From assembly GCA_964501915.1 (NCBI GenBank), contig CAZCVP010000034.1, positions 1 to 32,000 of the forward strand: a stretch of DNA of 32,000 nt. The letters run 5' to 3'. Position numbers and translations under genes: made by a program. Shown here piece by piece: positions 1,311 to 29,649 of this stretch. The notes below the pieces were generated by a model that saw only the letters and a program-made list of their open reading frames with translations, ran no database searches and was not told the origin of the DNA. Origin of the DNA: an uncultured Enterobacterales bacterium. GTDB taxonomy: Bacteria > Myxococcota_A > UBA796 > CAJQPC01. Every line of letters begins with the position of its first letter. Position 1 is the stretch's first letter.

Positions 1311-2801
1311 ATGACCACGCCACGCTCGACCGCCTACCTCGCCGGTGTTGTCCGCGAGCTCTGCAGGCTGCCCGGCGAGACGGTCTGGACCGAGTTCAAG
1401 GTCGACAACGCCGACCCACAGCTCATCGGCGAGTCCAGCTCCGCGCTGGCCAACGGCGCAGCCCTCCACGGCAAGACCCGCGGCTGGATGGTCTGGGGCG
1501 TTCGCGACGAAGACCACGAGATCGTCGGCACGGAGTTCCGGCCGGAAGCAGTGCGACGTGGCAACGAGGAGCTGGAGAACTGGCTCCTGCGCTTGCTCCG
1601 TCCGCGGATCGACTTCGGCTTCCATGAGGTCGACATGGACGGGGTGCGCGTGGTGCTCCTCGAGATCGACCGGGCAGCCGGGGCGCCGGTCGCCTTCAGT
1701 GGCATCGAGTACGTCCGGATCGGGAGCTACACCAAGAAGCTCAAGGACCACCCCGAGAAGGAACGGGAACTCTGGAGGACCTTCGACCGGGTGGCCTTCG
1801 AAGAGGGCGTGGCCCAGGAGCGCGCGAGCGCCGACGAGGTCCTGCACAAGCTGGACTACCCCGCCTACTTCCACCTGCTGGAGGTACCGCTTCCCGAGGG
1901 TCGCGCCGCCCTCCTGGAGGGCCTCCAGCGGGAGCGGGTGATCGTCCCCTGCCAGGCTGGCGGCTACGACATCACGAACCTGGGCGCCGTCCTGCTGGCA
2001 CGCCGGCTCGAGGACTTCCCGCGGCTGCGTCGCAAGGCCGTCCGGGTCATCCAGTACCGGGGCACGGGGCGCACCGACCCCCTCCGGGAACAGGTCGGCG
2101 GCAAGGGCTACGGCAACGGCTTCGAGGGTCTGGTCCGGTTCCTCGCCGGACTCCTGCCGAGCAACGAAGTCGTGGGCCAGGCGCTGCGCCGGGAGGTGCC
2201 GATGTTCCCACCGCTCGCCGTCCGCGAGCTGGTCGCCAATGCGTTGATCCACCAGGACTTCTCTGTCACGGGTGCCGGACCGATGGTCGAGCTGTTCCAG
2301 GACCGACTGGAGATCACGAATCCGGGCGAGCCGCTGGTGGACAAGGAGCGCTTCCTGGACTGCCCACCCACGTCTCGCAACGAGACCCTGGCCTCCCTGA
2401 TGAGGCGCTTCGGCATCTGCGAGGAACGAGGCAGTGGATTCGACAAGGTGGTCGCACAGGTCGAGATGTTCCAGCTCCCACCACCGCTCATCGAGGTGCC
2501 TCCAGGCTTCACGCGCGTGGTGCTCTTCGCGCCCCGCACGCTCGCCGAGATGGACAAGGACGAGCGGGTGCGCGCCTGCTACCTCCACGCCTGCCTGAAG
2601 TACGTCCAGCGCGACTTCCTGACCAACTCCTCCCTTCGGCAGCGCTTCGGGATTGAGCCCAAGAACCGCGCCATGGCCTCTCGGCTCATCCGGGACGCCA
2701 TCGATGTGGGTCAGCTCGCACCCTACGACCCTGGCGCGTCCCCGAGGTTCATGAAGTACGTGCCATGGTGGGCGACCTCGACGCGACGGGACACGCGGTG
2801 A
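1311..2801 (+). CDS. Schlafen/AlbA_2-domain + HATPase_c_4 ATP-binding protein (COG2865 type; often annotated as 'RecG-like putative transcriptional regulator').
   Basis: The N-terminus, GETVWTEFKV...SSALANGAALHGKTRGWMVWGVRDEDHEIVG, fits the AlbA_2/Schlafen-like fold signature. The central segment, LAVRELVANALIHQDFSVTGAGPMVELFQDRLEITNPGEPL, fits the HATPase_c_4 signature. The C-terminal region looks like a winged-helix domain. Third-position GC bias is good throughout. Confidence 0.85.
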   Translation: MTTPRSTAYLAGVVRELCRLPGETVWTEFKVDNADPQLIGESSSALANGAALHGKTRGWMVWGVRDEDHEIVGTEFRPEAVRRGNEELENWLLRLLRPRIDFGFHEVDMDGVRVVLLEIDRAAGAPVAFSGIEYVRIGSYTKKLKDHPEKERELWRTFDRVAFEEGVAQERASADEVLHKLDYPAYFHLLEVPLPEGRAALLEGLQRERVIVPCQAGGYDITNLGAVLLARRLEDFPRLRRKAVRVIQYRGTGRTDPLREQVGGKGYGNGFEGLVRFLAGLLPSNEVVGQALRREVPMFPPLAVRELVANALIHQDFSVTGAGPMVELFQDRLEITNPGEPLVDKERFLDCPPTSRNETLASLMRRFGICEERGSGFDKVVAQVEMFQLPPPLIEVPPGFTRVVLFAPRTLAEMDKDERVRACYLHACLKYVQRDFLTNSSLRQRFGIEPKNRAMASRLIRDAIDVGQLAPYDPGASPRFMKYVPWWATSTRRDTR

Positions 2802-2927
2802 GCGAGCATGTTGACGGCCACTTGACCGGGCCCCCACCCGGCCAGGCTCCGCGCATCCGCGATCGTATTGATTTCAAGTGCTTGCATCAGGCCACTCCAC
2901 TTGATGGGCACTTGACTGGAGGCCCTC

Positions 2928-4223
2928 GTGGCCTCCCCTGTTGACCCCACCCACCTCTTCGCCACCCTGGAGCGCTCCGGCGCCGGCCTGGCCCTGGACC
3001 ACAAGGACCTCTGCTTCCTCGTGGCGCTCTCGGTCCACGTCGAGGGTCAGGGCCTGGCCTCGGTCTCCGAAGAGGCCCTGCGGGACGTCTTCGAACGCAC
3101 CTGGCAGCACGTGGAGCCCGGCGCCCTCAGTGTGCGCAAGGCCGCGACGGAGAGGATCGAGAAGCTGCGCACCCAGCGCCTGCTGAACCGACTCGCCGCG
3201 AGCCGCTACGCCGCGGAGAGCGACTACGCGCTGTCCACCCTGGCGATGGCCATTGTGCGCTTCTTCCACGAGGACGAGCGGCTCACCCGCGAGTCCCTCG
3301 ACGTGCTGACCCGCACCCTGGAGGCCGAGCTGGTCAAGGCGCTGCAGGCGCTCCGAGAGGTGTCGCCCGAGGAGGTGGGCGCCAGAGTGCTCCAGCCGAT
3401 GCGCGTCAGCGTGAGCACGCTGCTCGGTGGCATCGCGAACCGACAGCAGGGCCTCGACCGGCAGCAGGAGGAGCTGCGGGACGAGGTCACCGAGCGGCTC
3501 GGCGGCACGAGCGAGTCCGCCATGGAGGCCTGCGCCACCCTGCTGGAGAGCATGACGAGCACTCTGAAGGAGCTGACCCAGGTGTTGATGCGCGACTGCG
3601 CTCGGCTGCAGGAGGTCGTGGAACAGATCGCCCAGACCGCGCGGGCGCTGGACCGGGACGACGTGACCACCGCAGCGGCCGACGTGGCCGACAAGCTCCA
3701 CCGGGTGGAGGGCTGGGGCCAGAGCCGACTGGACACCTGGACCGAGTACCACGAGCACGTCCACCGCCACATCCGCATGGTCGTGAGCCTGGACCCCAAC
3801 CGCGCCCTGAGCCACGGGCTGCGGGACCTGATGCGCGACGGCCCCCGGTGGTCGCTCGTGGTGTGCGCCCCCGAGCGCTGGCGAGGGCTCCGTGAGGTGG
3901 ACCAACGGCGCCCCCCGGTGCGGGTCCGCCGAGAGCTGCGGGAGCGCGAGGAGCTGCCCGAGGAGGAGGCACCGCCCGTGGAAGGTCGCGTCGAGCAGGC
4001 CGTCAGGGCGGCACTGGCCGTGGGGCCGACCACCTACGTTCAGCTCGCGCGAGCGCTGCTGCCGGAGACCCCGGAGGGGGGCAGGCAGCGCATGCTCGGC
4101 GAGCTGGCCCGCCAGCTCTCCACCCAGGGCGTGGTGGCGCGACCCCGGACCCGGGACTGGCACCCGATCGGAGCCCTGGAGGTGAACGACTGGCTCGTGC
4201 ACCCGCCCGGGGAGAGCCCATGA
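2928..4223 (+). CDS. jetA: MukF-like kleisin subunit (JetA/MksF) of a Wadjet/MksBEFG-type SMC complex.
   Basis: The gene has a GTG start with GGAGG 5 nt upstream (2918-2922). At 431 aa it is close to MukF in size. The segments TQRLLNRL and LHRVEGWGQSRLDTWTEYHEHVHRHIRMVVSLDPNR parallel the E. coli MukF segments RQRLLNRF and [36 protein letters not shown], as I recall them. An acidic/basic linker (RELREREELPEEEAPP) precedes a C-terminal winged-helix-like end. Confidence 0.9.
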   Translation: MASPVDPTHLFATLERSGAGLALDHKDLCFLVALSVHVEGQGLASVSEEALRDVFERTWQHVEPGALSVRKAATERIEKLRTQRLLNRLAASRYAAESDYALSTLAMAIVRFFHEDERLTRESLDVLTRTLEAELVKALQALREVSPEEVGARVLQPMRVSVSTLLGGIANRQQGLDRQQEELRDEVTERLGGTSESAMEACATLLESMTSTLKELTQVLMRDCARLQEVVEQIAQTARALDRDDVTTAAADVADKLHRVEGWGQSRLDTWTEYHEHVHRHIRMVVSLDPNRALSHGLRDLMRDGPRWSLVVCAPERWRGLREVDQRRPPVRVRRELREREELPEEEAPPVEGRVEQAVRAALAVGPTTYVQLARALLPETPEGGRQRMLGELARQLSTQGVVARPRTRDWHPIGALEVNDWLVHPPGESP

Positions 4224-4888
4224 GCGAGCGCTACCGGAGCCTGGGTGACGTCATCGCGGACGAGCGCTTCCCCGCCGTCGACCTGGCGCTGCGCCGCGGA
4301 CGCCACATCGGCCTCGACGACCTGGAGGACTTCGCCTTCCTCCAAGAGACACGCCACCTGCTGCGGGAGTTCTACGACGGCTACGGCTGGCAGCTCGAGT
4401 TCGCGGACGAGGGCCTGTTCTTCCTGATCCCGCTGAACGACAGCCTCGGCCGGGCACAGCTCAGCGACAACGCCATGCTCGTGGGACAGGCCTGCCTGCT
4501 GCTGCACCTCGATCGGGCGAGCACGCGGGACGCCGGCTGGGTGACGCGGGCGCAGGTCCTGGAGCACCTCGGCGCCGTGCTCGGCGAAGAGGAGCTGGGC
4601 GTGCGCCTGACCGGCTCCAAGCGGCGCCGCGAGACGCGACGCATCGACCTGGTCCACCAGCGCCTCGGCGGGGCGCTGAGGGAGCTGCACCGCCTCGGCT
4701 TCGTGGTGGTCAAGGGCGAGCGGGTGCAGCTACGGCAGGCGCTGGTGCGCTTCGCGGATCCGGTGCGCGGCGACGGCGACTGGCGGCGACGTCTCGAAGA
4801 CCTGGTGTTCCGCGGCTACGTCGTCGTGCCGGGGGAGACCGCGCTCGACGAGGAGCAGGACGACGCCTGGACGAAGGGCGAGGAGTGA
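4220..4888 (+). CDS. jetB: MukE-like subunit (JetB/MksE).
   Basis: An ATGA start/stop overlap couples it to the upstream gene. FPAVDLALRRGRHIGLDDLEDFAFLQETRHLLREFYDGYGWQLEFADEGLFFLIP parallels E. coli MukE [55 protein letters not shown], as I recall it. The C-terminus is acidic. Confidence 0.9.
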   Translation: MSERYRSLGDVIADERFPAVDLALRRGRHIGLDDLEDFAFLQETRHLLREFYDGYGWQLEFADEGLFFLIPLNDSLGRAQLSDNAMLVGQACLLLHLDRASTRDAGWVTRAQVLEHLGAVLGEEELGVRLTGSKRRRETRRIDLVHQRLGGALRELHRLGFVVVKGERVQLRQALVRFADPVRGDGDWRRRLEDLVFRGYVVVPGETALDEEQDDAWTKGEE

Positions 4889-7800
4889 AGCGAGCCCGCG
4901 CGACCCGCCTGGCCCTCGTGAACTGGAAGGGGCTGGTCTACGAGGAGGTAGAGCTTGACCCCGGCGTCACCGCGCTGGAGGGAGAGAACGGCGCCGGGAA
5001 GACCACGGTGATGATCGCCGCCTACACCGTGCTGCTGCCCGATCTCAGCCACCTGCGCTTCACCAACGTCGGCGAGACCGGGAGCACGGGAGGCGACGCC
5101 GGCATCTACGGTCGGCTGGGCCACGCCGGACCGGCGTACGCGTGGCTCGACCTGCAGCTCGACCGCAAGCGGGTGGTGGCGGGTGTGCTCCTGGATCGCA
5201 AGGCGCGGCCTCGCCTGGAGGTCTCACCGTACCTGTTGGACGACGTTCCCTTCGAGGTACCCCTGGAGACCCTGGTGATGCGACGCCACGGAGGCCAGGT
5301 CGAGGTTCCCGAGGCCCCGGACATCCCGAACCTGGCCCTGGCGGCCGGGGCGCGGCCAAGGTCCTTCGGCAAGGACAAGAAGGCCTACTTCAGCGCCCTG
5401 TTCGAGCTGGGCATCACCCCGCTGAGGATGGCCTCCTCGGAGGAGCGCAAGAAGCTGGACGACATGCTGCGAACCTGCATGATGGGCGGGATCTCCAACG
5501 TCCTGCGCACGGGACTGCGGGACTTCCTGTTCGCGGAGAACACCCGGCTTGCGGACACCGTGAAGCGCATGGAGCACAACCTGGCCCTGTGCCGGGACAC
5601 GCGAGCCAGGGTGAGGCGCAGCGAGGAGCTCCGGCGGGAGATCGGGGAGCTCTACGAGAAGGGCGAGTCGACCTTCCTCTACGCCGCCCACGGTGTCGCG
5701 GTCTGGGAGCGGGAGGCGCGGGAGAGGCTACGGGAGCTGGAGTCGGCGCAGACCGCGCTCCAGGACCAGGTGGACCGGGTCGGCGGCGAGCTGGCGCAGA
5801 CCGAGCGGCGCCTCGCCGAGGGGGCGAGCGAGCAGGAGGCCCTCGGGGAACGCCTTGACGTGGCGAACCTGCGGGTCCAGCAGGTGGAGCGGGCGCTGGA
5901 GCTGCTGGACCGGGCGCGGGCGAAGGGGCGGGAGGTAGAGCGCCTGGGGGAGACCTGGCGGGCTGCCCAGGGGGAGCTGGACACAGCCACGGCGGGGCTG
6001 CGGATCTCGGAGGGGGCCGAACAGCGGGCTCGCGAGGAGGCGACGACCGCCGCGGAGAACCTCTCCAGCCACCAGGACGCCTACCAGGAGCTCTCCCGCC
6101 GCGTGGGTCTGCATCGGGCGGCTGTGGAGCGGCTGGAGCGCGCACGGACAGTTCTGGGCCTCCCTGCCCTCCCCGAGGGAGAGCTCCAGATCCGCCTCGA
6201 GTCCACTCGCCGAGAGGAAGCCCGGCTGCGAGACCGGTTCCGGGAGATCGAGCTGCGCGTGGAAGACGCCGAGGAACACGCCGGGCGCCACGCCAACGGC
6301 CTGGCCACCCTGTCCCGGCTTCTGCGTCGCGAAGCCGAAGTGACGGACCTGCCCACCGCCTGGGAGCTGCGGGACAAGCTCCGCCAGGCCAGCACTCAGC
6401 TTCCTCGCCTGGAAGAAGAGGCGACGAGCGCCGCCCGGACCGCAGGCGAACAACGGCGGGCACGGGAGCGAGCGGCAGCGCTCGGTGTCCCCGACGGTCC
6501 GCATCTGAGCGCAACGCTCCAGGGTCTGGAGGCCACTGAGCAGGAGCTCGACGCTCGGCTCGGCCTCGACCTCGTGAAGCAGGCCGAGACCCGAGTCGAG
6601 CAGGCGCGACTGGACCAGGAACTGGCCCGAACCCGGGCAGCGCTGCCCGCGTGGCTGAGAGCGCGGGATCTCCTGGATCGGTTGGCCGAGCGCTGGGGTC
6701 CGTTCGACAGCAGCGAAGGCCTCGCAAGCGGCCACTCCGAGCTCAAGCGAACCCTCGCCGCCCACCAGGAGACTCTGGCCGAGCGACGTGCGGATGTGGC
6801 CGCTCTCACCGAGCGCATCCGAGGCCTGGAGCTCCAGGCCGACCACCCGGAGCACGTGCTGCGTGCCAGAGACGCGGTCGACGCCGAGATCGTGGCCGAG
6901 CACTTCGACGAGGTCGCGCTCGAGCGGGCCGCCACGGTCCAGGCGTGGCTCGGCCAGCGGGCCCACGCGCTGCTGGTCGACAACCCCCGCCAGGCCGCCT
7001 TGAGACTGTCGACGGCCGGCATCCTGGGCCAGGGAGACGAGGTGCTGCTGGTCCGGGGCCTACCGAGTCTCCCCGAGGCACTGTCGACCACAGATACCGG
7101 TGGCGTGGTGGTCACGGACGGACAGGTGACTCGACTCGCCCAGCCGCCGGAGATCCCGGTCCTGGGGCGGGCGGCGCGGGCTCGCGCCCTGGCCGCTCTT
7201 CAGCGGGACCTCGCGAGGGCCGAGGCGGCCGAAGAGACCCAGGCGGCGGAGGTCGATCGGCTCACGGCCGATCTCTCCATGATCGAACAGGCCCTGCCGC
7301 TGGCTCCGTCACTCGACGAGCCCGATCCCCGTCCCCAGATCGACCGACTGGCGCTGGAGCTCTCGGAGCTGGGCCTCCGATCGGCGGACATCAGCGCCGC
7401 GCTCGAAGGCCACAGCAGCAACCTCGACGAGGTGCGCCTCAGGCTGCGGAGGCTACGGGAGCTGTTGCCGACCCTGTCGCTGCTCGATCCTCCCGACTAC
7501 ACCGCCCTGGCCCGCGCGGTGCAGGCGCGACACGGCATTGCCCTCACCGACGCCAAGCGCTGGGAGTCCAGCCAGGCGGACTGGCGGCTCCTGGCCGACC
7601 ACCGGGATGACCTGCGCAGACCCCCCATCGACGAGGAACAGGCGCGGTCCCTTCGAGATGAGCTGGACGCCGTCTCTACCCAGCGGAAGCGCCTGAGGGA
7701 CGCCACCGAGGCCCTCGGTGAGCTGTGCCGAGATCCTGCACCGCTGGGCTGGGGCGACTCTGAGGCGATCCTGGTGGAGCGTGCTGCCCTCACCCCGAAG

Positions 7801-9219
7801 CTGAAGGCCTCCAGCGACCGAGCGAGGGAGGCCCTGGCCGAAGCGGTCACAGCGATGGCGGACGCTCGCCAGGAGCGGGACAACGCCCAGGAGCGGAGAG
7901 ACCAGGCGAAGGTGAGGCACGATCTTGCCGCTGGCGAGTCCGCCCAGCTCCAAGAGCAGCTCGAAGAGACTGGACTGCCTCTGCCCAGACCATCCCTGCT
8001 GACAGAGGCCCGCGCCACCCGGGAAGACCTCCGAGCGCAGCGGGAGACGCTGGCCAGGACCCTGGCGATACTCCAGGAGGCGAAGGGCGGCCTCAAGCGA
8101 GATCTGGACCGAGCCCAGAACGACCTGCGCCAGACCACAGAGAGAGTCGCAGGTGCCCAGCTCGAGCACCGCAACCGCAGGACCACCTGGGAGACCTTCG
8201 CGGAGTCCGCGGCGTCGGCCGGGCTTCAGCTCGACCCACTGCTGCGCCGCCCCGTCCAGGTCGAGGGCAGCCCCAACCTGTTCAGCGAGGCCAAGGCCCG
8301 CTGTGCCGCGATCACCGCGCTGCTGCGGCACACGGAGTCCAACGAGCTGCTCGGGCTGTATGAGGGCATCGGCGACGGCACCCGCGTCGAGCACGTCCGC
8401 GCCTGGTCGGCCCTGCGAGCCGAGCTGCACCGGCGGATCCCGCCGGACATCAGCGAGGCCCCCGACGTGGTCGGCCGCCTGGACGACCTGGGACGCCGTC
8501 TGCACCGCTTGCGACGCACCCTCAAGGAGCGCGAGCGGGACCTTCGCACCGACGCTCGCCACATCGGAACCACCATCCAGAGCCAGCGACGACGCGCCTA
8601 CAGCCTCGTGCGAAGCCTGGCGAAGTCCCTCGAAGCCGTCCGCTTCGGGACGATCACGCGCATCACCCTGAGCCACGAGCCCATCCGCAAGATGGACGAG
8701 CTCCTGGACGCGCTGTCGGGACAGGTGGACCTGTTCAGCCAGCCGCGGCCGGTCGAGGAGGTCATGGTGGAGCTGTTCGAGAGCATCGGTGGCGGCCGGG
8801 TCAGGGCAGCTCGCCTGCTGGACTACCGCCAGTACTTCCGCGTGCGAGTCGATGCGGTGCGGGACGACGGCAGCCACGTCGGCGCCCGCGGGGACCAGAT
8901 GTCCACCGGCGAGGCCATCGGCATCGGGGCGTCCGTGATGATGGTGGTGCTCCAGGCCTGGGAGCAGCACAGCGCCAAGCTGCGGAAGAAGCGGCAGCAC
9001 GGCACGATGCGCCTGCTCTTCCTGGACGAGGCGACACGGCTGAGTCCCAAGTCGCTGCTGGTGCTCTTCGACCTCTGCAGCAAGCTGGACCTCCAGCTCC
9101 TGATCGCCGCGCCCGAGGTCGCCCGGGTCGCTGGCGGGACCACGTACACGCTCGTTCGTCACAAGGACCGGGTGGACTTCCACGGCCGGAGGGTGGTGAG
9201 GCATGGCCTGGGAGAGTGA
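4885..9219 (+). CDS. jetC: MukB-like SMC ATPase (JetC/MksB), 1444 aa.
   Basis: A GTGA overlap couples it to jetB. The N-terminal head reads LVNWKGLVYEEVELDPGVTALEGENGAGKTTVMIAAYTVLLPDLSHLRFTN (Walker A at aa 33-41, MukB_N-like). Long Arg/Glu/Leu/Ala coiled-coil arms follow. A hinge-like block sits at ~6850-7200 and ends in PVLGRAARARALAAL (compare MukB PLFGRAARESRIESL). The C-terminal head carries MSTGEAIGIG (signature motif), RLLFLDEATRL (Walker B), LLIAAPE and GTTYTLVR. Confidence 0.95.
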   Translation: MKRARATRLALVNWKGLVYEEVELDPGVTALEGENGAGKTTVMIAAYTVLLPDLSHLRFTNVGETGSTGGDAGIYGRLGHAGPAYAWLDLQLDRKRVVAGVLLDRKARPRLEVSPYLLDDVPFEVPLETLVMRRHGGQVEVPEAPDIPNLALAAGARPRSFGKDKKAYFSALFELGITPLRMASSEERKKLDDMLRTCMMGGISNVLRTGLRDFLFAENTRLADTVKRMEHNLALCRDTRARVRRSEELRREIGELYEKGESTFLYAAHGVAVWEREARERLRELESAQTALQDQVDRVGGELAQTERRLAEGASEQEALGERLDVANLRVQQVERALELLDRARAKGREVERLGETWRAAQGELDTATAGLRISEGAEQRAREEATTAAENLSSHQDAYQELSRRVGLHRAAVERLERARTVLGLPALPEGELQIRLESTRREEARLRDRFREIELRVEDAEEHAGRHANGLATLSRLLRREAEVTDLPTAWELRDKLRQASTQLPRLEEEATSAARTAGEQRRARERAAALGVPDGPHLSATLQGLEATEQELDARLGLDLVKQAETRVEQARLDQELARTRAALPAWLRARDLLDRLAERWGPFDSSEGLASGHSELKRTLAAHQETLAERRADVAALTERIRGLELQADHPEHVLRARDAVDAEIVAEHFDEVALERAATVQAWLGQRAHALLVDNPRQAALRLSTAGILGQGDEVLLVRGLPSLPEALSTTDTGGVVVTDGQVTRLAQPPEIPVLGRAARARALAALQRDLARAEAAEETQAAEVDRLTADLSMIEQALPLAPSLDEPDPRPQIDRLALELSELGLRSADISAALEGHSSNLDEVRLRLRRLRELLPTLSLLDPPDYTALARAVQARHGIALTDAKRWESSQADWRLLADHRDDLRRPPIDEEQARSLRDELDAVSTQRKRLRDATEALGELCRDPAPLGWGDSEAILVERAALTPKLKASSDRAREALAEAVTAMADARQERDNAQERRDQAKVRHDLAAGESAQLQEQLEETGLPLPRPSLLTEARATREDLRAQRETLARTLAILQEAKGGLKRDLDRAQNDLRQTTERVAGAQLEHRNRRTTWETFAESAASAGLQLDPLLRRPVQVEGSPNLFSEAKARCAAITALLRHTESNELLGLYEGIGDGTRVEHVRAWSALRAELHRRIPPDISEAPDVVGRLDDLGRRLHRLRRTLKERERDLRTDARHIGTTIQSQRRRAYSLVRSLAKSLEAVRFGTITRITLSHEPIRKMDELLDALSGQVDLFSQPRPVEEVMVELFESIGGGRVRAARLLDYRQYFRVRVDAVRDDGSHVGARGDQMSTGEAIGIGASVMMVVLQAWEQHSAKLRKKRQHGTMRLLFLDEATRLSPKSLLVLFDLCSKLDLQLLIAAPEVARVAGGTTYTLVRHKDRVDFHGRRVVRHGLGE

Positions 9220-10189
9220 GTCCGACCGGGCGCTGCTCCTGGAGCTCCGCCTGACCGGCGCCGCACGACGGCGGACAGCCCAGCAGAGCCTGCTGGAGAT
9301 GCTGGAGAGGCAGGGCTGGGTGGTGTCCACCCCGCGGGCCGACGAGGTCGAGCTGGTCGCCGAGCGCGTCGTGGAGCTGGATCGCATGCTCGATGGCCGG
9401 TGGAAGGGTTGGCGGGCGGTCGCTCACGCGCTGCTGGCACGCGAGCTCCCTCCGACCGTGCGCGGTCTCAAGGAGCTGAGGCGTCTGGAGCGGGAGCCAC
9501 CGCCGATCCCCGCTCGGGTGAGCCTGAAGACCGCGACCTCACAGGTCGCTGAGCACAGCAAGGCCAGCTTGCATCGAGGCCACCTGGAGATGCTCGGAGG
9601 AGCTGAGGTGGTCCGGGACGGCACGGTGCTGATGAGGCCGCACGCCGGGACGAAGCTCCGGAGGGGCAGTGACCTGGTGGATGCCTCTCAGCTCGTGGCC
9701 CTCCAGGGCATCGTCGCCTTGACCCAGAGGGCGCTGCTGGACGGGACTCGCGTGGTGGGCCCCAGGCCGGGGGCGGTCATGACCGTCGAGAACGAGTCCG
9801 CCTTCGTCGACCTGCCGAAGCCCGACGGCCTGCTGTTGGTGTGGATTCCGGGCTGGAACACGCACCTCGCGGTGGAGCTGCTCCGCTCGCTGCCCGAGGG
9901 ACGCCGACTCCACTTCGGGGACCTGGACGTCAACGGGGTCAGGATCTATCGGCACCTGCGCGAGAGGCTGCCGGACCTGGAGCACTTCGTGCCCGAGTGG
10001 TGGGCCGAGGTGGCGGCAGAGGCGCCTCCGTGGCCGGTGGAGTGGCCGGAGGGGCTGGTCAGGGCGAACGATCCTCAGCTCCTTCGCGACCTGGCGGCCA
10101 AGGGCCTGGGGTCCGAGCAGGAGGTCGTGGTGCTGGACGGGCGGATGGTGGGGGAGCTCGAGCAGGCCGTCGGACCCGGTCCTCTCTGA
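9203..10189 (+). CDS. jetD: JetD/MksG-like Toprim (DUF2220-type) nuclease subunit, 328 aa.
   Basis: The ATG at 9203 overlaps the jetC stop (9217-9219) by 17 nt. Toprim-type acidic motifs are present: AVMTVENESAFVDL (E196) and RLHFGDLDVNGVRIYRHL (D240, D242). A late EQEVVVLD segment is also present. Confidence 0.8.
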   Translation: MAWESESDRALLLELRLTGAARRRTAQQSLLEMLERQGWVVSTPRADEVELVAERVVELDRMLDGRWKGWRAVAHALLARELPPTVRGLKELRRLEREPPPIPARVSLKTATSQVAEHSKASLHRGHLEMLGGAEVVRDGTVLMRPHAGTKLRRGSDLVDASQLVALQGIVALTQRALLDGTRVVGPRPGAVMTVENESAFVDLPKPDGLLLVWIPGWNTHLAVELLRSLPEGRRLHFGDLDVNGVRIYRHLRERLPDLEHFVPEWWAEVAAEAPPWPVEWPEGLVRANDPQLLRDLAAKGLGSEQEVVVLDGRMVGELEQAVGPGPL

Positions 10190-10494
10190 GCACGCGGCGT
10201 CAGAGCTTCAGCAGCCGAGCCGCGCACCGAGCCAGAGCCGATCGAAGCGCCGAGCGATCACGCCTGCCCCGGCGGTTGACTGCACGCGCTGCGGATGCAA
10301 GCTGACCGGCCACACCAGACCCAGCGGCTCCGCGACGACTGACAGCGGCGCTGGTGGTGCCGGAGGCCCTGGTGTGACCTTCGGCGACGACCGGGTCCCG
10401 GTCCATCGAGGGCTGAGCCCGATCCGGTTAGTCCCCCCGGCCACAGGTTCTCGGGTCGTGTGCTTGGAACACCGGCCAAGAGGAGGGGGACACC

Positions 10495-13400
10495 ATGACC
10501 CATGCTGGCGCCTCGAAGCGTCTGGGCGGCTGTGATCTGGGCAAGTCCACGGCGTGCTTCGCCGTGGGCCGGCTCGAGCGGGACGGCACCCTCGTCGTCG
10601 AGCAGACACGGACCGTGGCCCACGATGGACGTCCCTTCGAGGCCTTCGCGAGCTGGTACCGGGAGGTCGGTGCGGCCGACTTCGCCGCCATCGGCGCCAC
10701 GGGACTCCACGGCCGCGAGCTGATCACGCCGGTGGTGTCGGGCCTGCCCGAGGACGCCTGCGTCGAGGCGGCGCTCCCAGCCAGCGGGCCGCTCAATGTC
10801 GTGCGCGTCGGCGCTCGGGGCTACTCCGTCTGGACCCGCGACGCCGCCGGCAACGTCTCCTTCGCCGAGAACGAGCGCTGCTCTTCGGGCACCGGCGAGA
10901 CGATGGTCAAGATCGCCTCTCGCTTCGGCCTGGCCATCGAGGAGGCCGATGCCCTGGCCGCCTCGGCCACCCGGAGCACCCCGATCACCGCCCGCTGCTC
11001 CGTGTTCGCCAAGAGCGAGATGACCCACTTCGGCAACCAGGGCAAGCCGGCGGACGAGCTGTTCCGGGGGTACTTCGAGAGCGTGGCGCGGCACGCGGCC
11101 TCGCTGCTGGTGCGGGCGCGGGTCCCCGGGCCCGTCTGGCTGGTCGGCGGCTGCAGCCGGATCTCCACCTTCGTGTCCTCCTTCCGGGAACAGGTCGGCG
11201 GCGACGTCGTGGTGCCGCCGAGCGCGCTGGTCCTGGAGGCCCTCGGCGCCCTGCACCTGGCGGCCGAGCACGCCGAGCACGCCCTGGCTGCACCCCTCCC
11301 CGCCGAGCCCCAGGAGCTGGTCTCGGCCGGCGAGCGCGGCTTCGGTACCCTCGCGGTGACAGCCGAGCAGCACGACCGGGTCACGCGGCTGCAGCCGGAT
11401 CCGGTGCCGCCCGGTGCGATGACCGCACCCAGCGTGCTCGGGCTCGACCTGGGGAGCACCGGCAGCAAGGCCGTCCTGACGTCGTTGGCGGACGGTCGCT
11501 GCGTGCTCGACCTCTACGACCGCACCCGGGGCAACCCGGTGGACGCGATGAAGCGCCTCGTGGCCAGCCTGCTGGACCGCTGCACGCCGGACGTCCGGGC
11601 CATCGGCCTGACCGGGTCGGGACGGGAGGCCGCGGCGACAGTGCTCCGCGCGACCTGGCCAGAGCTGTCCGACCGCATCGTGGTCATCAACGAGATCGTC
11701 GCCCACGCCACCGCGGCCATCCGCTGCGACCCCGAGGCCGGGGAGAGCCTCAGCATCGTCGAGATCGGCGGCCAGGACGCCAAGTTCATCCAGGTCCGAG
11801 GCGGCCGGATCGTCGAGAGCGACATGAACAAGGCCTGCAGTGCAGGCACCGGGTCCTTCCTGGAGGAGCAGGCGGTCTTCTTCGGAGTGGACCGCATCGA
11901 GGACTTCAGCAGCATCGCCGGCCAGGCCACGCGTCCGCCGGACCTTGGGCAGATGTGTACGGTCTTCGTCGCCGATGCCGCTGGCGAGGCCCTCGGTGAG
12001 GGCTTCACCACCGGCGACATCTTCGCCGGGTTCGAGTACTCGGTGATCCACAACTACATCCACCGCGTGCGTGGACAGCGGGCCTTCGGGGACCGGATCT
12101 TCTTCCAGGGCAAGCCGGCCACGAGCCCAACCCTGGCCAGGACCCTGGCGGCCGTGGCCGGCCGGGAGGTCGTGGTGCCACCGAACCCGGGGGCCATGGG
12201 CGCCTGGGGCATCGGCCTGTGCGCCCGGACGGGGCTCGCCGATGGCGAGGGAGCGTCCTTCGCCTTGGAGCGGGTGCAGCAGGCCCGGGTGGTGGGCCGG
12301 TCGGAGCTGCGCTGCAAGGACCCCCGGTGTGCGACCTACTGCGTCATCGACCGCACCACGGTCCAGGTGGGCGAGGTGCGCAAGAAGGTCCTCAGCGGTG
12401 GCGCCTGTCCCAAGTTCGAGGTCTCGACCGCCACCCGGGTCAAGCTCCCGCGAGAGGCCCCGAGCGCCTTCGCCGAGCGCGCGGCGCTGATCGCCGGCCT
12501 GGGCGCGGGGGGCGATCGCGTCGTCGGCATCCCCAACGTCGGTGCCCTCCAAGGGGTCCTGCCCTGGCTCGCGGCCTTCCTCGAGGGCCTGGGCCTGGGC
12601 GTTCGCATCCTGGGGTCGGACAAGGACTCCCTCTCCGAGGGCGAGACGAGCTGCTACGCCCCGGACTCCTGTTCCCCCTGCAAGCTGGCCCACGGGGTCG
12701 TGGACCCGTCCGTCGACACCGTCGTGTTTCCCAAGATCCTGGACCTGCCCGAGCAGGGACGCGACGGGGGCCGGACCTGCCCGGTGGAGCAGGGCATGCC
12801 GGACATGATCCAGCAGTCGCTGTCGGGTCGGGGGCATCCCACCCGAGTCGTGCGCCCAGCGCTCTCGCCCGCCCGGGGGCTGAGGGACGGCGTGCTGTTC
12901 GGGCAGCTCTTCCGGCTGGCGAAGGAGCTGGGGGCCCCGGCCACGCGGGTGCCCGCGGCGGCCTACAAGGCGGGGGCGGTGCAGCGGGAGTGGGAGCTGC
13001 GCCTGGCCGAGATCGGTCGCCGCACCCTGGACTATTCCCGGGAGCACCACATCCCCGTGGTCGTGGTCTGTGGCTCGCTGCACGTGATCCACGATGCGGG
13101 TCTCAACGCGGGCATCCCGGGCATCCTCCGGGACAACGGCGTGCTGGCGCTCCCGATGGACTGCTTCGAGCTGCAGCCCGACACCCCCGAGATGAAGCGC
13201 ATCGTCTGGGCGGACTCCCGGCGCAGCGTGCGGGTGGCGGCGGCCGCCAGGCAGCTCGGGGGGGTCTACCCGCTGCTGCTGTCGGCCTTCGGCTGTGGCC
13301 CGGCGAGCTTCACGGAGCCGCTCTTCGCCGCCGTGATGGACGGCTACCCCCACACGGCCCTGGAGACCGACGGCCACGGGGGACGAGCGGGGTTCGTGAC

Positions 13401-16181: not shown

Positions 16182-19100
16182 TCAGCCCGACTCGGGCCCC
16201 CGATCCGTCAGCGCGTCCGCCTCCTCGTCCCGCCCCAACCCCCGGAGCTGCTGCTCGGCGAGGGCGAAGGCCGCGGTGGCCCGCTCCTCGTGGAGACCCT
16301 GCCGCGCCACCTCGCCGGCCCGACGGGCGAGCCTCGCCATGTCCGGTCCGACGAAGCCCGAGCGCGCCAGGGCCCGCCTCGCCGCCAGGAAGTGCCGGTC
16401 CCAGGACCGCCAGTCGGCCTCCATGCCGTGACAGATCGCCAGCCCCAGATCGACCCCGGACATCAGCGCGTGCCCCGGGTCGACGCCCTGCTGCCTCCAG
16501 CCCAGCTCGAGCTGCTCCCGCATCGCCACGAAGTCGCCTCGCTCCAGGTCGATCATCACCAGGTTCAGGCGGCTCACCAGCACGTCGAGGGGACGATCCA
16601 GCGAAGCGAAGAGGTCGAGGGCCGCGCGGTAGCGCCGGATGGCCTCGTCGAGCTCCCCCCGCAGGCGGGCCACCTCGCCGAGCTGGGTGAGGCACTTGGC
16701 CGCCAGGGCCCGGTAGCCCAGGCGACGCGCGACCCCGAGGCCTTCCAGGGCGTGGTGCAGCGTCGTGTCGAGCTCCCGCCGGCGCCAGGCCACGGTCGCG
16801 CACTCGTGGTGGGCACCGACCTGTCGGGCCGGCAGGTTCGCCTCCGTCGCCAGCCGCAGCGCCTCCTGCCCGTGGGACCAGGCCTCGTCGAAGCGACCGA
16901 GGAACTTGTAGCTCTGGCTGAGGTTGATGTGGTTCTGTGCCTCGGCGTCCCGGTCCCCCACCGACGTGAAGAGGGCACCCGCCTCCTGGTAGAGGCACAG
17001 GGCCGAGCTCAGCTCCCCCTGGCGGTAGGCCATGCGGGCCCGCAGCGCTCGGACCTGGGCCCGGGTGTGGGCCCAGTCGTAGCGCTCGACGTCCTCCTCG
17101 ATCCGGTCCAGCATCTCCTCGACCGAGCTCTCCTCGTGGGACCAGGTGGCGAGCTGGGCACGGGTCACGGCCAGCTCGCCCCAGAGGGGCTCCGACGGGG
17201 GCCAGCCCAGCGCGTCGAGGACCTCTTCGGCCTCCTCGACCAGGCACAGGGCCCGTCGGGACTCGCCTCGCTCGACCCGCCAGTGGAGCGCCTCGAGCAG
17301 GGGCGTCAACGCCTCGGCGGACAGGCCCGCGCTGCGGAGGTGGCGAGATCGGCGCTCGGCGACGGCGGCCCCCCCCCGACCCTCGAGCAGCTCCGCGCAC
17401 CCCTGGTGCAGGGTCGTCGCGCGACCGTCCAGGGCCGCGAGGACCTCGATGGTCTCTCGCAGCATGCCGTGCGAGAAGGCGAAGCCCTCCTTGGGGCGCA
17501 CGCGCACCAGGAGCTGGGCCTCCAGGGCCTGCAGCAGACCCCGACTGGCGGTCACGCCGAGCCGCCGGCAGAGGGCGACCCACTCCTCCCGGACCACCTC
17601 CTGCCCGAGCACGGCCGCGGCCTGCAGGGCGATCCGGTCTTCGCCCGGTCGCGTCGACAGCAGGTGCTCGACGCGCTCCGCCCAGACCTCGCCCAGGGCC
17701 TGGGGGAGGACCGGCGAAGCCTCCGGCCCCAGGTCGAAGCCCTCGGGGGTCCCCACGAGCAGGCCGCGCCAGGCCCAGTCCCGCACGAGCTGGACGGCGA
17801 ACAGGGGGTTGCCTGCGGTGCGCTCCTCGACGCGGGTGGCGAGCTCCGGGCGCAGACAGAGGAGCTGTCGCACCAGGGCCCGGGAGGCCTCGCGCCCCAG
17901 GGGGCCCAGCGCCACGCGACGGGCTTCGGGACGGCGACCGAGCGCCGAGATCAGCTCCAGCACCGCGGGCCGCTGGGCCAGCGCCTCGTCCCGCACCGTC
18001 AGGACCACCAGGGTCGGACAGGGGGGAGCGCCCTCACGGAGCAGGAAGTCGACGCAGGCCAGGGCATCGAGGCCCCACTGGGCGTCGTCCACCCAGAGCA
18101 CGACCGGGCGCGTACAGCCGCGCCGACCGAGGTGGCGCTCCAGGACCCCGTAGCGCTCGCGGGCGCTGCCGAAGGCCACACCCACCCGGTCCTCGGGCGC
18201 CCCCATGAACGCAGCCAGGGCCGCTGCTTCATCGACCGGCCAGGCCCGCCACCGGCGCGCAGTCGGTCCTCGAGGTGCTCGATCAGCGCCTCGCCGTCCA
18301 GCCCCAGGCAGCGCAGGGACCGGGCCAGCATCGGGCCGAGGCCGTCGGCACCTCCGCCGCCGGGACCGTGGACGGCCTGGAGGACCTCGGCTGCGCCGGT
18401 CTCGTGGGCCCGCTCCGTGAGCCAGCGCGCCAGCCGGCTCTTGCCGACCCCGCTGGGGCCGTGGAGCACGCACAGCCGGGCCTGTCCGCTGTGGCCCGCG
18501 TCGACGAGGGACTCCCAGAGGACCTCGCGCTGCGCCTCGCGGGCCACCAGGGGCACCACCCGGTAGCGACACAGCTCCAGGCCGGTCCCCGCCAGCCAGG
18601 TACCGTCCACCGGTGCCCCTCCACGCCAGGAGGGCGGCATCGGGGCTGGCGCCGGAGGCACGGGCGGCGCCGCCTCCCAGTCCACCCTCAGGGCGCCAGG
18701 GAGGGTGCGCAGGGCCGCCGCCGCATCGGCCGCCCGCTGGTAGCGGGTGCCCGGGTCCTTCCTCAGCAGCAGTCCGAGCCAGTCGCCCAGCCCGCCGGGC
18801 ACCTCGAGGTCCGGGGGCAGGGCCGGTAGCGGTGCCTGGAGATGAGCGTCGAGGATCCCGCCCGGGTCGGCGCGCCGGTAGGGGGCCGCGCCGGTGACCA
18901 TCGCCCAGGCCACGCACCCCACCGCGTAGAGATCCGTCCACGGCCCGAAGGCCCGCCACTCCCCCCGGATCTGCTCCGGGGCCATGTAGCTGGGCGTCCC
19001 GGCGGTGCGCATCGCGCCCGGGCCACGCTCCTCGCGGTTCCCCAGGTGGGCGAGCCCGAAGTCGGCCAGCACCAGGTCCCCGTCCAGTCGAGCCAGCAGC

Positions 19101-19543
19101 AGGTTCGACGGCTTCACGTCCCGGTGAACGATGTTCCGGGCGTGAGCATGGGCCAGGGCCTCCAGGAGCTGCAGCAACAGGGTCCGACAGCGAGGCCAGT
19201 CGAGCCTCCCGAGCAGCTTGCGGAGGTTGGTCGCGAGGCGATCCATCACCAGGTAGGGCGCACCGGCGGGAAGGAGGCCGTCGCTCTGGTCGCACACCGC
19301 CTGGGGCACCTCTCCGTGGTCCCGGATGCGCACGATGTGCGGATGGGAGAGCGCGGCGATCGCTCGGACCTCCGTGTCGAAGGCCGCGCGGTAGACCTCG
19401 TCGCGGGCCGCAGCGACCGTGAGCACCTTGATCGCCACTGGCAATTGGTGGTCCCGGTGGCGACCGCCCCAGACGTGGGCCATGCCTCCGCGGCCAAAGG
19501 GACGGTCCAGCTCGAATGGGCCCAGTGTGGGCATGCGGAGCAC
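16182..19543 (-). pseudogene. Ser/Thr protein kinase fused to an AAA/STAND ATPase and TPR repeats. The reading frame is broken by a single frameshift near 18240-18260, which is either a genuine pseudogene or an assembly indel.
   Basis: Frame A (ORF 17999..19543) carries the kinase motifs GRGGMAHVW, AIKVL, HRDVKPSNLLL, ADFGLA and SYMAPEQ. The Walker A GPSGVGKSRLA follows, and the frame stays credible through GLDGEALIEHLEDRLRA. Frame B (ORF 16182..19700) becomes credible only from WPVDEAAALAAFMGAPEDRV. It then carries Walker B VVLWVDDAQWG, NPLFAVQLV and TPR-like repeats up to the stop at 16182. The part of frame B upstream of ~18260 is Arg/Pro/Gly junk. Confidence 0.75.
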
Positions 19544-25494: not shown

Positions 25495-26532
25495 TCACTG
25501 CGCGCCGCTGTGAGTCTCCACGGTGTGGACCCCCGAGTCATGGACGACGGTGTGCTCCAGGCGCGCCTCCGCCGTCACGACGGCACTGTCCCAGACGACG
25601 CTGTCCCGCACTCTGGCTCCGCGGCGCACGACCGCTCCGGCCCCCAGGATCGCGCCTGGCCCGACCACGACGTCCGCCTCCAGCACCACGCTGGGACCGA
25701 TCCAGCAGGGCCCCTCGATGCGAGCGCTGGTCGAGGCCTCCACGGCGTCCCGGCTCCCCCAGGTGCGGTCTCCCCTGCGGGCGAAGGCTGCCCGGGGCAT
25801 CGGGTCCAGCACCAGGGGCAGCTCCCCCGCCAGCGCGGCCCGGTTGGCGGCCAGGTAGAGCTGCGGGTTGCCGAGATCGACCCAGGTGCCCGCGTGGCGC
25901 AGCGCCCGCACCCGTCGCCGGGGCACCAGGTCGCCATAGGCCGTGCGCACGACGCAGGCCTCGCCCTCCGGGACCCGCTCCAGCGCCCCCTGGTCGAGGG
26001 CGTGGATGCCCGTGAAGTGGGTCGTGCGATCGACGGCTCCGACCGGCTCCGCGACGGCGAGGCCCACCAGGTCGACCACGGTGTCCGTGGCGTCCGCGGC
26101 CACGATCCCGTACTGGGGGCCCCCTCGGCGCAGCGCCATCGCCGCCGCCCCCGGGCCGCCCGGCACCGCCTCGATCAGGGCCCGCAGGTCCACGTCGCTG
26201 AGCACGTCGCCGTTGACCACCACGAAGCGGTCCGCGAGGTGCTCCCGGGCGTGCCGCAGGCCACCGCCGGTGCCCAGGATGCGCGGGGACTCCAGGGAGA
26301 CCACCAGGTCGAAGTCCTGCCGCTCGGCCCAGGCCTCGATCGCCTCCGGCAGGTGGTGGGCGTTGACGACGGCCCGCTCAAACCCCTGGTCCTGCAGCCG
26401 GGCCACCGCCTGGTCCAGCAGCGGCAGGCCGCACAGGGGCACCAGGGGCTTGGGGCGGTCGAGGGTGAGGGGACGGAGGCGGGTGCCGAAGCCGGCGGCG
26501 AGCAGGAAGGCGTCCGCCGGGGGCCTACTCAA
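25495..26532 (-). CDS. Sugar-phosphate nucleotidyltransferase: an NTP_transferase fold followed by a C-terminal left-handed beta-helix.
   Basis: The N-terminus AFLLAAGFGTRLRPLTLDRPKPLVPL is the G-x-G-T-R-x-x-P-x-T signature. The C-terminus has hexapeptide-like repeats (GPSVVLEADVVVGPGAILGAGAVVRRGARVRDSVVWDSAVV). The only available start is TTG at 26532, which overlaps the upstream gene's TAG stop by 8 nt. Confidence 0.85.
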   Translation of the reverse strand: MSRPPADAFLLAAGFGTRLRPLTLDRPKPLVPLCGLPLLDQAVARLQDQGFERAVVNAHHLPEAIEAWAERQDFDLVVSLESPRILGTGGGLRHAREHLADRFVVVNGDVLSDVDLRALIEAVPGGPGAAAMALRRGGPQYGIVAADATDTVVDLVGLAVAEPVGAVDRTTHFTGIHALDQGALERVPEGEACVVRTAYGDLVPRRRVRALRHAGTWVDLGNPQLYLAANRAALAGELPLVLDPMPRAAFARRGDRTWGSRDAVEASTSARIEGPCWIGPSVVLEADVVVGPGAILGAGAVVRRGARVRDSVVWDSAVVTAEARLEHTVVHDSGVHTVETHSGAQ

Positions 26533-29214: not shown

Positions 29215-29649
29215 TCAAGCCAGGAGAGGATTCCGGCAACGGAGTCCACCGAAGCGGGAGAAGTCCCGGTCCGCGGTCAACAGCTCGGTGACACCGTGCT
29301 GGAGGCAGAGGGCGGCGATCCGGGCGTCGTGGACCCGCGGCCCCACGATGGAGCCGCTGACCACCAGCTCAGCCAGCCTGTCGAGGTGCCTGGGGCCCTC
29401 ACCGACGAGGACGAGCAGCGGAGACGCCGTCCACGAGCGACAACAGGCCAGGGCCGTCTCCACCTCCGTGGGCGGTCGCCAGATCCTGGGGTGGGTCACC
29501 ACCGCGAGGAACTCGTGCACGCAGGGCCAGGGAATGCACCAACGCCTGTCCCCTTCGACCAGGGCCGAGAGACAGTCGAGCGCAGCACCGTGGAAGGGGC
29601 TGTCGGAGCGGTGGGCGTGGACGAGGAGGTTGGTGTCGACCCCGATCAC
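29215..29649 (-). CDS. vapC: PIN-domain ribonuclease toxin, VapC-type.
   Basis: The N-terminus is MIGVDTNLLVHAH. The later PIN acidic residues are HDARIAALCLQHGVTELLTADRDFSRF. The GTG start overlaps the antitoxin stop (GTGA at 29646-29649). Confidence 0.9.
   Translation of the reverse strand: MIGVDTNLLVHAHRSDSPFHGAALDCLSALVEGDRRWCIPWPCVHEFLAVVTHPRIWRPPTEVETALACCRSWTASPLLVLVGEGPRHLDRLAELVVSGSIVGPRVHDARIAALCLQHGVTELLTADRDFSRFGGLRCRNPLLA

Follow-up and report, generated by a model that had tools for sequence, protein, structure and literature searches.

Does an operon that encodes MukF-, MukE- and MukB-like proteins together with a fourth protein of the JetD/MksG Toprim kind serve the chromosome of its host, or does it defend that host against plasmids? 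The question is raised by four genes at positions 2928–10189 of a 32,000-nucleotide stretch of DNA, the whole of which we refer to as the window (contig CAZCVP010000034.1 of GenBank assembly GCA_964501915.1), from an uncultured marine bacterium. We call the genes F, E, B and G, and we consider it very likely that they form a complete, apparently functional Wadjet-group (MksBEFG/JetABCD-type) plasmid-defence system with a MukBEF-type motor. We favour this reading because all four roles are present, the catalytic residues are intact, the operon is coupled, the cassette travels, and its flanks elsewhere contain defence and mobile genes; also because the clade to which it belongs has already been assigned an MksG subunit in a published survey (Bürmann et al., 2025, Data S1; PMC7617805), and extrusion followed by cleavage has been shown for both type I and type II Wadjet.

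All four genes lie on the forward (+) strand. F, the kleisin subunit (MukF/MksF/JetA equivalent), occupies 2928–4223 and encodes 431 amino acids (aa) from a GTG start; E, the KITE subunit (MukE/MksE/JetB equivalent), occupies 4220–4888 (222 aa; ATG start); B, the SMC ATPase subunit (MukB/MksB/JetC equivalent), occupies 4885–9219 (1444 aa; GTG start); and G, the JetD/MksG-type nuclease subunit, occupies 9203–10189 (328 aa; ATG start) and consists of an N-terminal winged-helix (arm/CAP-like) part followed by a C-terminal Toprim part. Neighboring genes overlap at every junction: the ATG of E overlaps the stop codon of F within ATGA (4 nucleotides; 4220–4223), the GTG of B overlaps the stop codon of E within GTGA (4 nucleotides; 4885–4888), and B and G share the 17 nucleotides ATGGCCTGGGAGAGTGA (9203–9219). 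F, E, B and G are therefore one translationally coupled operon, in which kleisin, KITE, SMC and Toprim nuclease genes run in the same direction as they do in Wadjet systems. An initial annotation, made from the DNA letters and their translations, had described these four open reading frames (ORFs) and the three overlaps; all of them were found at the coordinates given here, and every peptide motif that it listed was located at a definite position in F, E, B or G.

In the window, which has a GC content of ~71%, long spurious ORFs are common on both strands. All four frames display a coding-type distribution of GC by codon position (87–93% at position 3 and 41–48% at position 2), which sets them apart from most shadow ORFs on both strands. 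Independent gene callers also predicted the same four genes in another five assemblies of this organism, which come from JGI, ENA, and Logan marine metagenomes. The possibility that the operon is an artefact or a pseudogene was ruled out by the intact frames, the strong coding signal in codon-position GC, and the presence of identical genes in six independent assemblies. Scanning 2500–10700 for promoters and terminators revealed no promoter-like site and two terminator-like sites, both of which are intragenic and at chance level.

The homology of the first three products to MukF, MukE and MukB, which the initial annotation had proposed, is borne out by Pfam, NCBIfam and PDB sequence matches. 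By Pfam, F has a KicB winged-helix domain (aa 19–114) and a MukF_M domain (aa 125–278), with WGQSRLDTWTEYHEHVHRHIRMVVSLDPNR starting at aa 263; it scored 215.6 bits over positions 10–368 of the 440 positions of the NCBIfam MukF model (cut-off 407) and matched MukF chains only among PDB sequences (E = 5e-29). E, in which FPAVDLALRRGRHIGLDDLEDFAFL starts at aa 17, matched both the MukE (88 bits) and the MksE (76 bits) models of Pfam, scored 87.1 bits with the NCBIfam MukE equivalog (cut-off 250), and matched MukE chains only in the PDB (E = 3e-23). B aligned from aa 1 to 1426 with positions 2–1452 of the 1486-position NCBIfam MukB equivalog (682 bits; cut-off 699), matched the Pfam MukB N-terminal (186 bits) and MukB_hinge (56 bits) models, and matched PDB MukB over its full length (283 bits). 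Sequence searches with F, E or B matched none of the JetABC chains deposited in the PDB. Taking the NCBIfam equivalogs NF003615, NF003602, and NF003422 with their curated cut-offs as the test for canonical MukBEF, we found that all three motor subunits fall below the cut-offs.

B carries a Walker A motif, GENGAGKTT (4981–5007, + strand; aa 33–41), a MukB-type hinge (dimerisation) domain (6787–7248, + strand; aa 635–788) that was recognized by Pfam MukB_hinge and by the PDB hinge chains 3ibp, 2wmm, and 4mn4, and a C-terminal head (8899–9042, + strand) with the signature MSTGEAIGIG (aa 1339–1348) and the Walker B motif LLFLDEATRL (aa 1377–1386); LPDLSHLRFTN begins at aa 51, PVLGRAARA at aa 758, and GTTYTLVR at aa 1418. 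Residues K39, S1340, D1381, and E1382 were invariant among 47 sequences of the family of related operons described below, and they align to K40, S1366, D1406, and E1407 of Escherichia coli MukB. The Walker A, signature and Walker B motifs of the SMC subunit are thus intact, as they are in Wadjet systems. In the hinge of B (6898–7095; aa ~672–736), an uncertain hinge alignment places R681, a gap, and T736 opposite D697, D745, and E753 of E. coli MukB, the acidic residues that bind the ParC subunit of topoisomerase IV; across the family, their counterparts are acidic only in part. The N-terminus of E (4220–4260; aa 1–14) displays a family-wide [FY]-x-x-L-E motif (here Y5...L8), and the MukE-like FPxVD block comes right after it; when the N-termini of the family were aligned with that of E. 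coli MukE, the latter lacked the motif. Speculatively, the motif may be the counterpart, by analogy, of the N-terminal helix of type I JetB that is predicted to bind JetD.

What sets the operon apart from MukBEF is its last gene. The fourth product had been proposed to be a JetD/MksG-like Toprim protein, a proposal that was to be dropped if profiles of that kind failed to match; G matched Pfam JetD_C with 41 bits, above the cut-off of 22, and had no match in NCBIfam. A profile of the G family matched Corynebacterium glutamicum MksG (PDB 8b7f; E = 1e-6), in an alignment that pairs the VEN, GDLD, and EQE motifs, and, weakly, topoisomerase VI-A (1d3y). The AlphaFold2 model of G was of high confidence (predicted local distance difference test score 94.6), and a Foldseek search with it returned MksG (8b7f; 1e-8), Pseudomonas aeruginosa JetD (7til; 9e-7), and topoisomerase VI-A (3e-5), each aligned over nearly the whole chain. 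Three short motifs mark the putative active site, all on the + strand: VENESAF (9785–9805; from aa 195, with the catalytic-type glutamate E196), aligned to VENLDSF of MksG; GDLDVNG (9917–9937; from aa 239, D240-x-D242), aligned to GDLDLDG; and E305-Q306-E307 near the C-terminus (10115–10123), aligned to IEQERI. In an alignment of 29 family members, E196, N197, F238, G239, D240, D242, G245, and E305-Q306-E307 were invariant, which includes the three residues that the initial annotation had singled out for mutation (E196, D240, and D242), and no tyrosine was invariant. By Pfam, profile and AlphaFold2/Foldseek comparisons alike, G has the JetD/MksG fold with conserved acidic Toprim residues that is expected of the nuclease of a Wadjet system, and it is predicted to be a short JetD/MksG-type nuclease. 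Its N-terminal domain (9203–9700; aa 1–170) also holds invariant residues, namely W67, W70, R97, D139, and K120, the last of which lies inside a near-invariant H-S-K; these residues may serve in DNA binding or in docking on the motor.

To which lineage does this operon belong? B was 30–36% identical to the B proteins of the family, 24% identical to E. coli MukB, and 12–16% identical to the type II JetC of Bacillus plasmid pBb and the "BEFG" SMC of an Acinetobacter plasmid; G was 40–46% identical to family members. We built a neighbor-joining tree of B from 1472 columns, which is distance-based, has few outgroups (E. coli MukB, type II, and BEFG), and leaves out type I JetABCD, whose placement we took from the published tree. 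The family was monophyletic in 100 of 100 bootstraps, with the window B among its deepest branches, and E. coli MukB was the nearest outgroup. The SMC phylogeny that the initial annotation had proposed as a check thus groups the family with E. coli MukB, again in 100 of 100 bootstraps, to the exclusion of the type II and BEFG outgroups.

The same clade is present in the survey of "Wadjet group" operons by Bürmann et al. (Cell, 2025; PMC7617805), whose Data S1 gives CAN95856-59 of Sorangium cellulosum So ce56 as an FEBG operon, identical with one of our loci (L084), whose coordinates match; a second Sorangium operon was recovered as L063. FEBG operons with subunits of the same sizes are listed there for So0157-2 (AGP36472-75), Bradymonas sediminis (AWV89343-46), and P. 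aeruginosa NCMG1179 (GAA19672-75), with further entries from Massilia, Sulfurifustis, Thiococcus, and Plasticicumulans. In the published maximum-likelihood tree the FEBG clade is sister, with a bootstrap of 100, to the MukB proteins of Endozoicomonas and E. coli K-12 (AAC74010.1), both from FEB operons, and the next neighbors are FEBG operons of Azonexus, Salmonella Paratyphi B, Shewanella, and Vibrio natriegens (PMC7617805). The window operon groups with the Sorangium and Pseudomonas FEBG operons, with E. coli MukB as nearest outgroup, and so falls within this MukB-sister clade. It shares the gene order of the Data S1 operons and their sizes (F ~440, E ~225, B ~1470, and G ~325 aa); it differs in being a deep divergent branch, in a B of 1444 aa, and in the 17-nucleotide B/G overlap, the junction in the family being mostly 0–4 nucleotides, although 17 nucleotides recurs (as judged from ORF calls without upstream extension). 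Judged by these sequence relationships, the window operon is new and divergent within a MukB-proximal Wadjet lineage that is already catalogued but has no name. The initial annotation had suspected a poorly characterized Wadjet subtype; the lineage is indeed uncharacterized, but it had already been catalogued, as FEBG operons sister to MukB, in Data S1 of the 2025 survey.

We scanned one genome per GTDB species with the G family motif and obtained 145 loci, of which the best 80 were kept. Among these best 80 of 145 are loci of Planctomycetota, Myxococcota, Alpha-, Beta-, and Gammaproteobacteria, Acidobacteriota, Spirochaetes, Gemmatimonadota, and others, the carriers including cultured Sorangium and isolates of Pseudomonas and Stutzerimonas; one Sorangium genome has two loci (L078 and L083). 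The G family is rare: its homologues fell into 30 clusters when the 90% library was searched, and a search of 1.84 billion 50% representatives gave 165 clusters at E<=1e-30; relatives above 55% identity came from metagenomes only. We took a locus as informative if the DNA upstream of G extended for 6.6 kb or more (n = 63), and 54 of these loci had F, E, B, and G in this order on one strand. In the other nine, G stands next to no more than a C-terminal piece of B or is by itself, F and E both being absent within 10 kb, and these reduced cassettes are apparently decayed or disrupted. When six neighboring window proteins were compared by tblastn with ~90 related loci, no conserved fifth gene was found. 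The cassette travels as a unit, as is seen from the F-E-B-G order at 54 of 63 loci and from the neighbors of the window operon, which are not conserved elsewhere. At other loci the flanks contain AbiEi/AbiEii, an HNH protein, SNF2-type helicases, a NACHT ATPase, an AAA_15/21 ATPase, and a PLD-type nuclease, as well as transposases, VapBC, and an RHS protein. The distribution over many phyla suggests horizontal transfer, and the sporadic spread, often in defense or mobile contexts, is that of Wadjet systems; this pattern of contexts is that of a mobile accessory module and not of a housekeeping condensin.

Several variants of the cassette were seen along the way. Within the nine reduced cassettes, which include two complete Sorangium genomes, a B fragment lies just upstream of G (~10001) in L025, L032, L046, L053, L067, L076, and L078, and G stands alone in L088 and L089. 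A short-arm SMC of ~1012 aa, as opposed to ~1470 aa, is encoded in L001 (6960–10001), L065 (6960–9998), and L082 (6963–9998); these proteins retain the MukB head and hinge domains with ~230 residues fewer in each coiled-coil arm, and Azonexus NHC06397 in the table of Bürmann et al. (2025; PMC7617805) resembles them. Rare predicted proteins join part of MukB to G (P0127, 975 aa; P0097, 1052 aa; P0120, 461 aa): P0127 has the N-terminal head, the hinge, and G without a C-terminal head, and P0120 has the Walker B region of the C-terminal head and G. These could be real fusions, deletions, or artefacts of assembly or gene calling.

In the window itself, the operon is preceded on the + strand, at a distance of 126 bp, by the gene of a 496-aa protein with Schlafen AlbA_2 and HATPase_c_4 domains (1311–2801); only one other locus (L075) has a distant homologue (28% identity) in the same position, and the gene may be a regulator or an independent defense-associated gene. 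A CoA-enzyme activase gene follows the operon downstream. Farther away are a Ser/Thr kinase that also has AAA_16 ATPase and MalT-like TPR regions (16182–19534, − strand), which is one 1172-aa ORF here and two adjacent genes in other assemblies, a MopE/FG-GAP protein (26525–28558), and a 144-aa PIN-domain protein (29215–29649, − strand) that is probably the toxin of a VapBC-type pair. The kinase and the MopE/FG-GAP protein together are a hint that the host resembles Myxococcota.

How would such a system work? In the structures of type I Wadjet, two motor units have stalled with plasmid DNA between them, and a JetD dimer, whose arm/CAP part sits on the SMC "larynx", puts a kink into this DNA where the Toprim active sites are; type II Wadjet is similar in its behavior, and the geometry of its dimer resembles that of MukBEF. 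By analogy with these systems we infer loop extrusion, sensing of circularity and size, activation of the nuclease, and restriction of plasmids for the window operon. The kleisin F would dimerize two B2-E2-F motor units, which would load on DNA and extrude loops by means of the B ATPase. On small circular DNA the two motors would collide after near-complete extrusion, and the stalled, strained DNA between them would be presented to a G dimer docked on the motor. The Toprim dimer of G would then cut both strands, which would eliminate plasmids and leave the large chromosome intact.

How well does the operon fit the Wadjet systems already known? Type I Wadjet/JetABCD of E. coli GF4-3 and P. aeruginosa PA14 and MksBEFG of C. 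glutamicum are, like it, built from four kinds of subunit (a kleisin, a KITE protein, an SMC protein, and a Toprim nuclease), and G shares with MksG and JetD the arm/CAP-plus-Toprim fold and the E...DxD...EQE motifs. A number of observations, however, weigh against assigning the operon to plasmid defense. No match to the PADLOC JetA and JetB models was found in F and E, the JetC models matched B only at the P-loop or the C-terminal head (13–28 bits), and the JetD1 models matched G weakly and partially (33 bits at most), which makes the analogy to types I–III a distant one at the sequence level. G is shorter (328 aa vs. ~365–375 resolved residues in type I JetD/MksG chains), and its model gave Foldseek TM-scores of only 0.4–0.5 with a large root-mean-square deviation. 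The low scores probably reflect different angles between the domains of the model, closed and open conformations of JetD having been described in the JET structural study, and the surface by which G docks on the motor may differ from that of type I JetD/MksG. The dimer geometry of MukBEF-type motors differs from that of type I Wadjet in the literature, and activation may not be identical to that of type I. The neighbors of the operon in the window are mostly ordinary chromosomal genes with no clear defense island; its own flanks are only weakly suggestive of defense, through the upstream Schlafen AlbA_2 gene. Finally, literature searches for "MukBEFG", for a fourth Wadjet type, or for any paper naming or testing the clade found nothing.

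The profile searches, which the initial annotation had suggested as a way to assign a subtype, thus leave the system outside Wadjet types I, II, and III as defined by the PADLOC models, with G passing Pfam JetD_C, and an FEBG system of this kind would probably be missed by such tools. They agree with its description of the subunits as unusually Muk-like: PADLOC JetA and JetB are silent, JetC is seen only at the P-loop or C-terminal head, and all PDB matches are to MukB, MukF, and MukE only. The contrast that it drew between a MukB-sized SMC and JetC proteins of about 1100 aa likewise stands, as B has 1444 aa and the PADLOC JetC1 models have ~1100–1140 positions.

Could the operon instead be the housekeeping condensin of its host, a true MukBEF orthologue for chromosome organization and segregation with G as an accessory or passenger? 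B falls just 17 bits below the MukB equivalog cut-off, the PDB sequence matches of F, E, and B are all to MukBEF, most other genes of the window are ordinary chromosomal ones, and in the literature Wadjet motors probably extrude chromosomal DNA too. With E. coli MukBEF the operon shares full-length homology of F, E, and B, the F-E-B order with overlapping genes, and a MukB-type head, long arms, and hinge with the ATPase motifs at the same positions. Yet F (216 vs. 407 bits) and E (87 vs. 250 bits) lie far under the equivalog cut-offs, B is only 24% identical to its E. coli counterpart, the clade of the family excludes E. coli MukB, and the cmoM-mukFEB setting of E. coli is absent at the window locus. 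MukBEF has no nuclease gene (PMC7617805), and E. coli mukB is followed by ldtD; in place of a three-gene mukFEB operon without an MksG/JetD nuclease, the window has G at 9203–10189, tightly coupled and with an invariant active site. The taxonomic range differs as well, being scattered over many phyla, with two loci in a single Sorangium genome, and Sorangium So ce56 has a second, different FEBG operon (PMC7617805). Decayed remnants exist as well, and they are not what one would expect if an essential condensin were the only one in its host. We therefore regard a housekeeping role as quite improbable. A system of dual purpose, in which the motor folds the chromosome and the nuclease restricts small circles, as a living intermediate between Wadjet and MukBEF, would accommodate the sister relationship to nuclease-free MukBEF, the full-length MukB-sized arms with a MukB-type hinge, and the proposal in reviews that MukBEF came from Wadjet by loss of JetD. 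Such a role is still unlikely, since its patchy occurrence and its copies in decay point to a system that hosts can do without; in addition, the acidic hinge residues by which MukB binds topoisomerase IV are not kept in B, in a region where the alignment is uncertain.

MukB works with topoisomerase IV, and a partner of the motor for strand passage or decatenation, as opposed to a destructive nuclease, is what G would be if it resembled topoisomerase VI-A or Spo11 in function. G shares with these proteins the winged-helix/CAP and Toprim architecture, its AlphaFold2 model matches topoisomerase VI-A (TM ~0.45), and the family profile weakly matches 1d3y, as given above. The relationship is one of fold only: the best matches by both structure and sequence are the nucleases MksG and JetD, the operon has no gene for a B-subunit/GHKL ATPase partner, and the family has no conserved catalytic tyrosine by which a covalent link to DNA could be made. 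Lacking this invariant tyrosine, a topoisomerase-like G was rejected, and we hold it to be extremely improbable. A Wadjet-group plasmid-defense system with a MukBEF-type motor remains the reading that we favor.

What does the operon mean for the family? As a defense against plasmids Wadjet is well established, and reviews have speculated that MukBEF arose from it. On balance, we lean towards the view that the lineage is a distinct fourth Wadjet sequence type ("MukBEFG") that current finders do not call, and that no other surviving relative with a nuclease stands as close to MukBEF. F, E, and B are matched by the models for MukF, MukE, and MukB, with scores under the naming cut-offs, so there is a risk that they are labeled as chromosome partition proteins; genome surveys probably under-count Wadjet systems of the MukBEF type, and they may over-count MukBEF outside the Gammaproteobacteria. 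The window copy is a divergent marine representative of this lineage and adds no new principle. A clade that stands beside MukBEF with its nuclease retained is a natural experimental model for the passage from defense motor to chromosome organizer, and if it is true that the clade restricts plasmids with a motor of MukBEF geometry, the hypothesis that MukBEF is a domesticated defense system would become directly testable.

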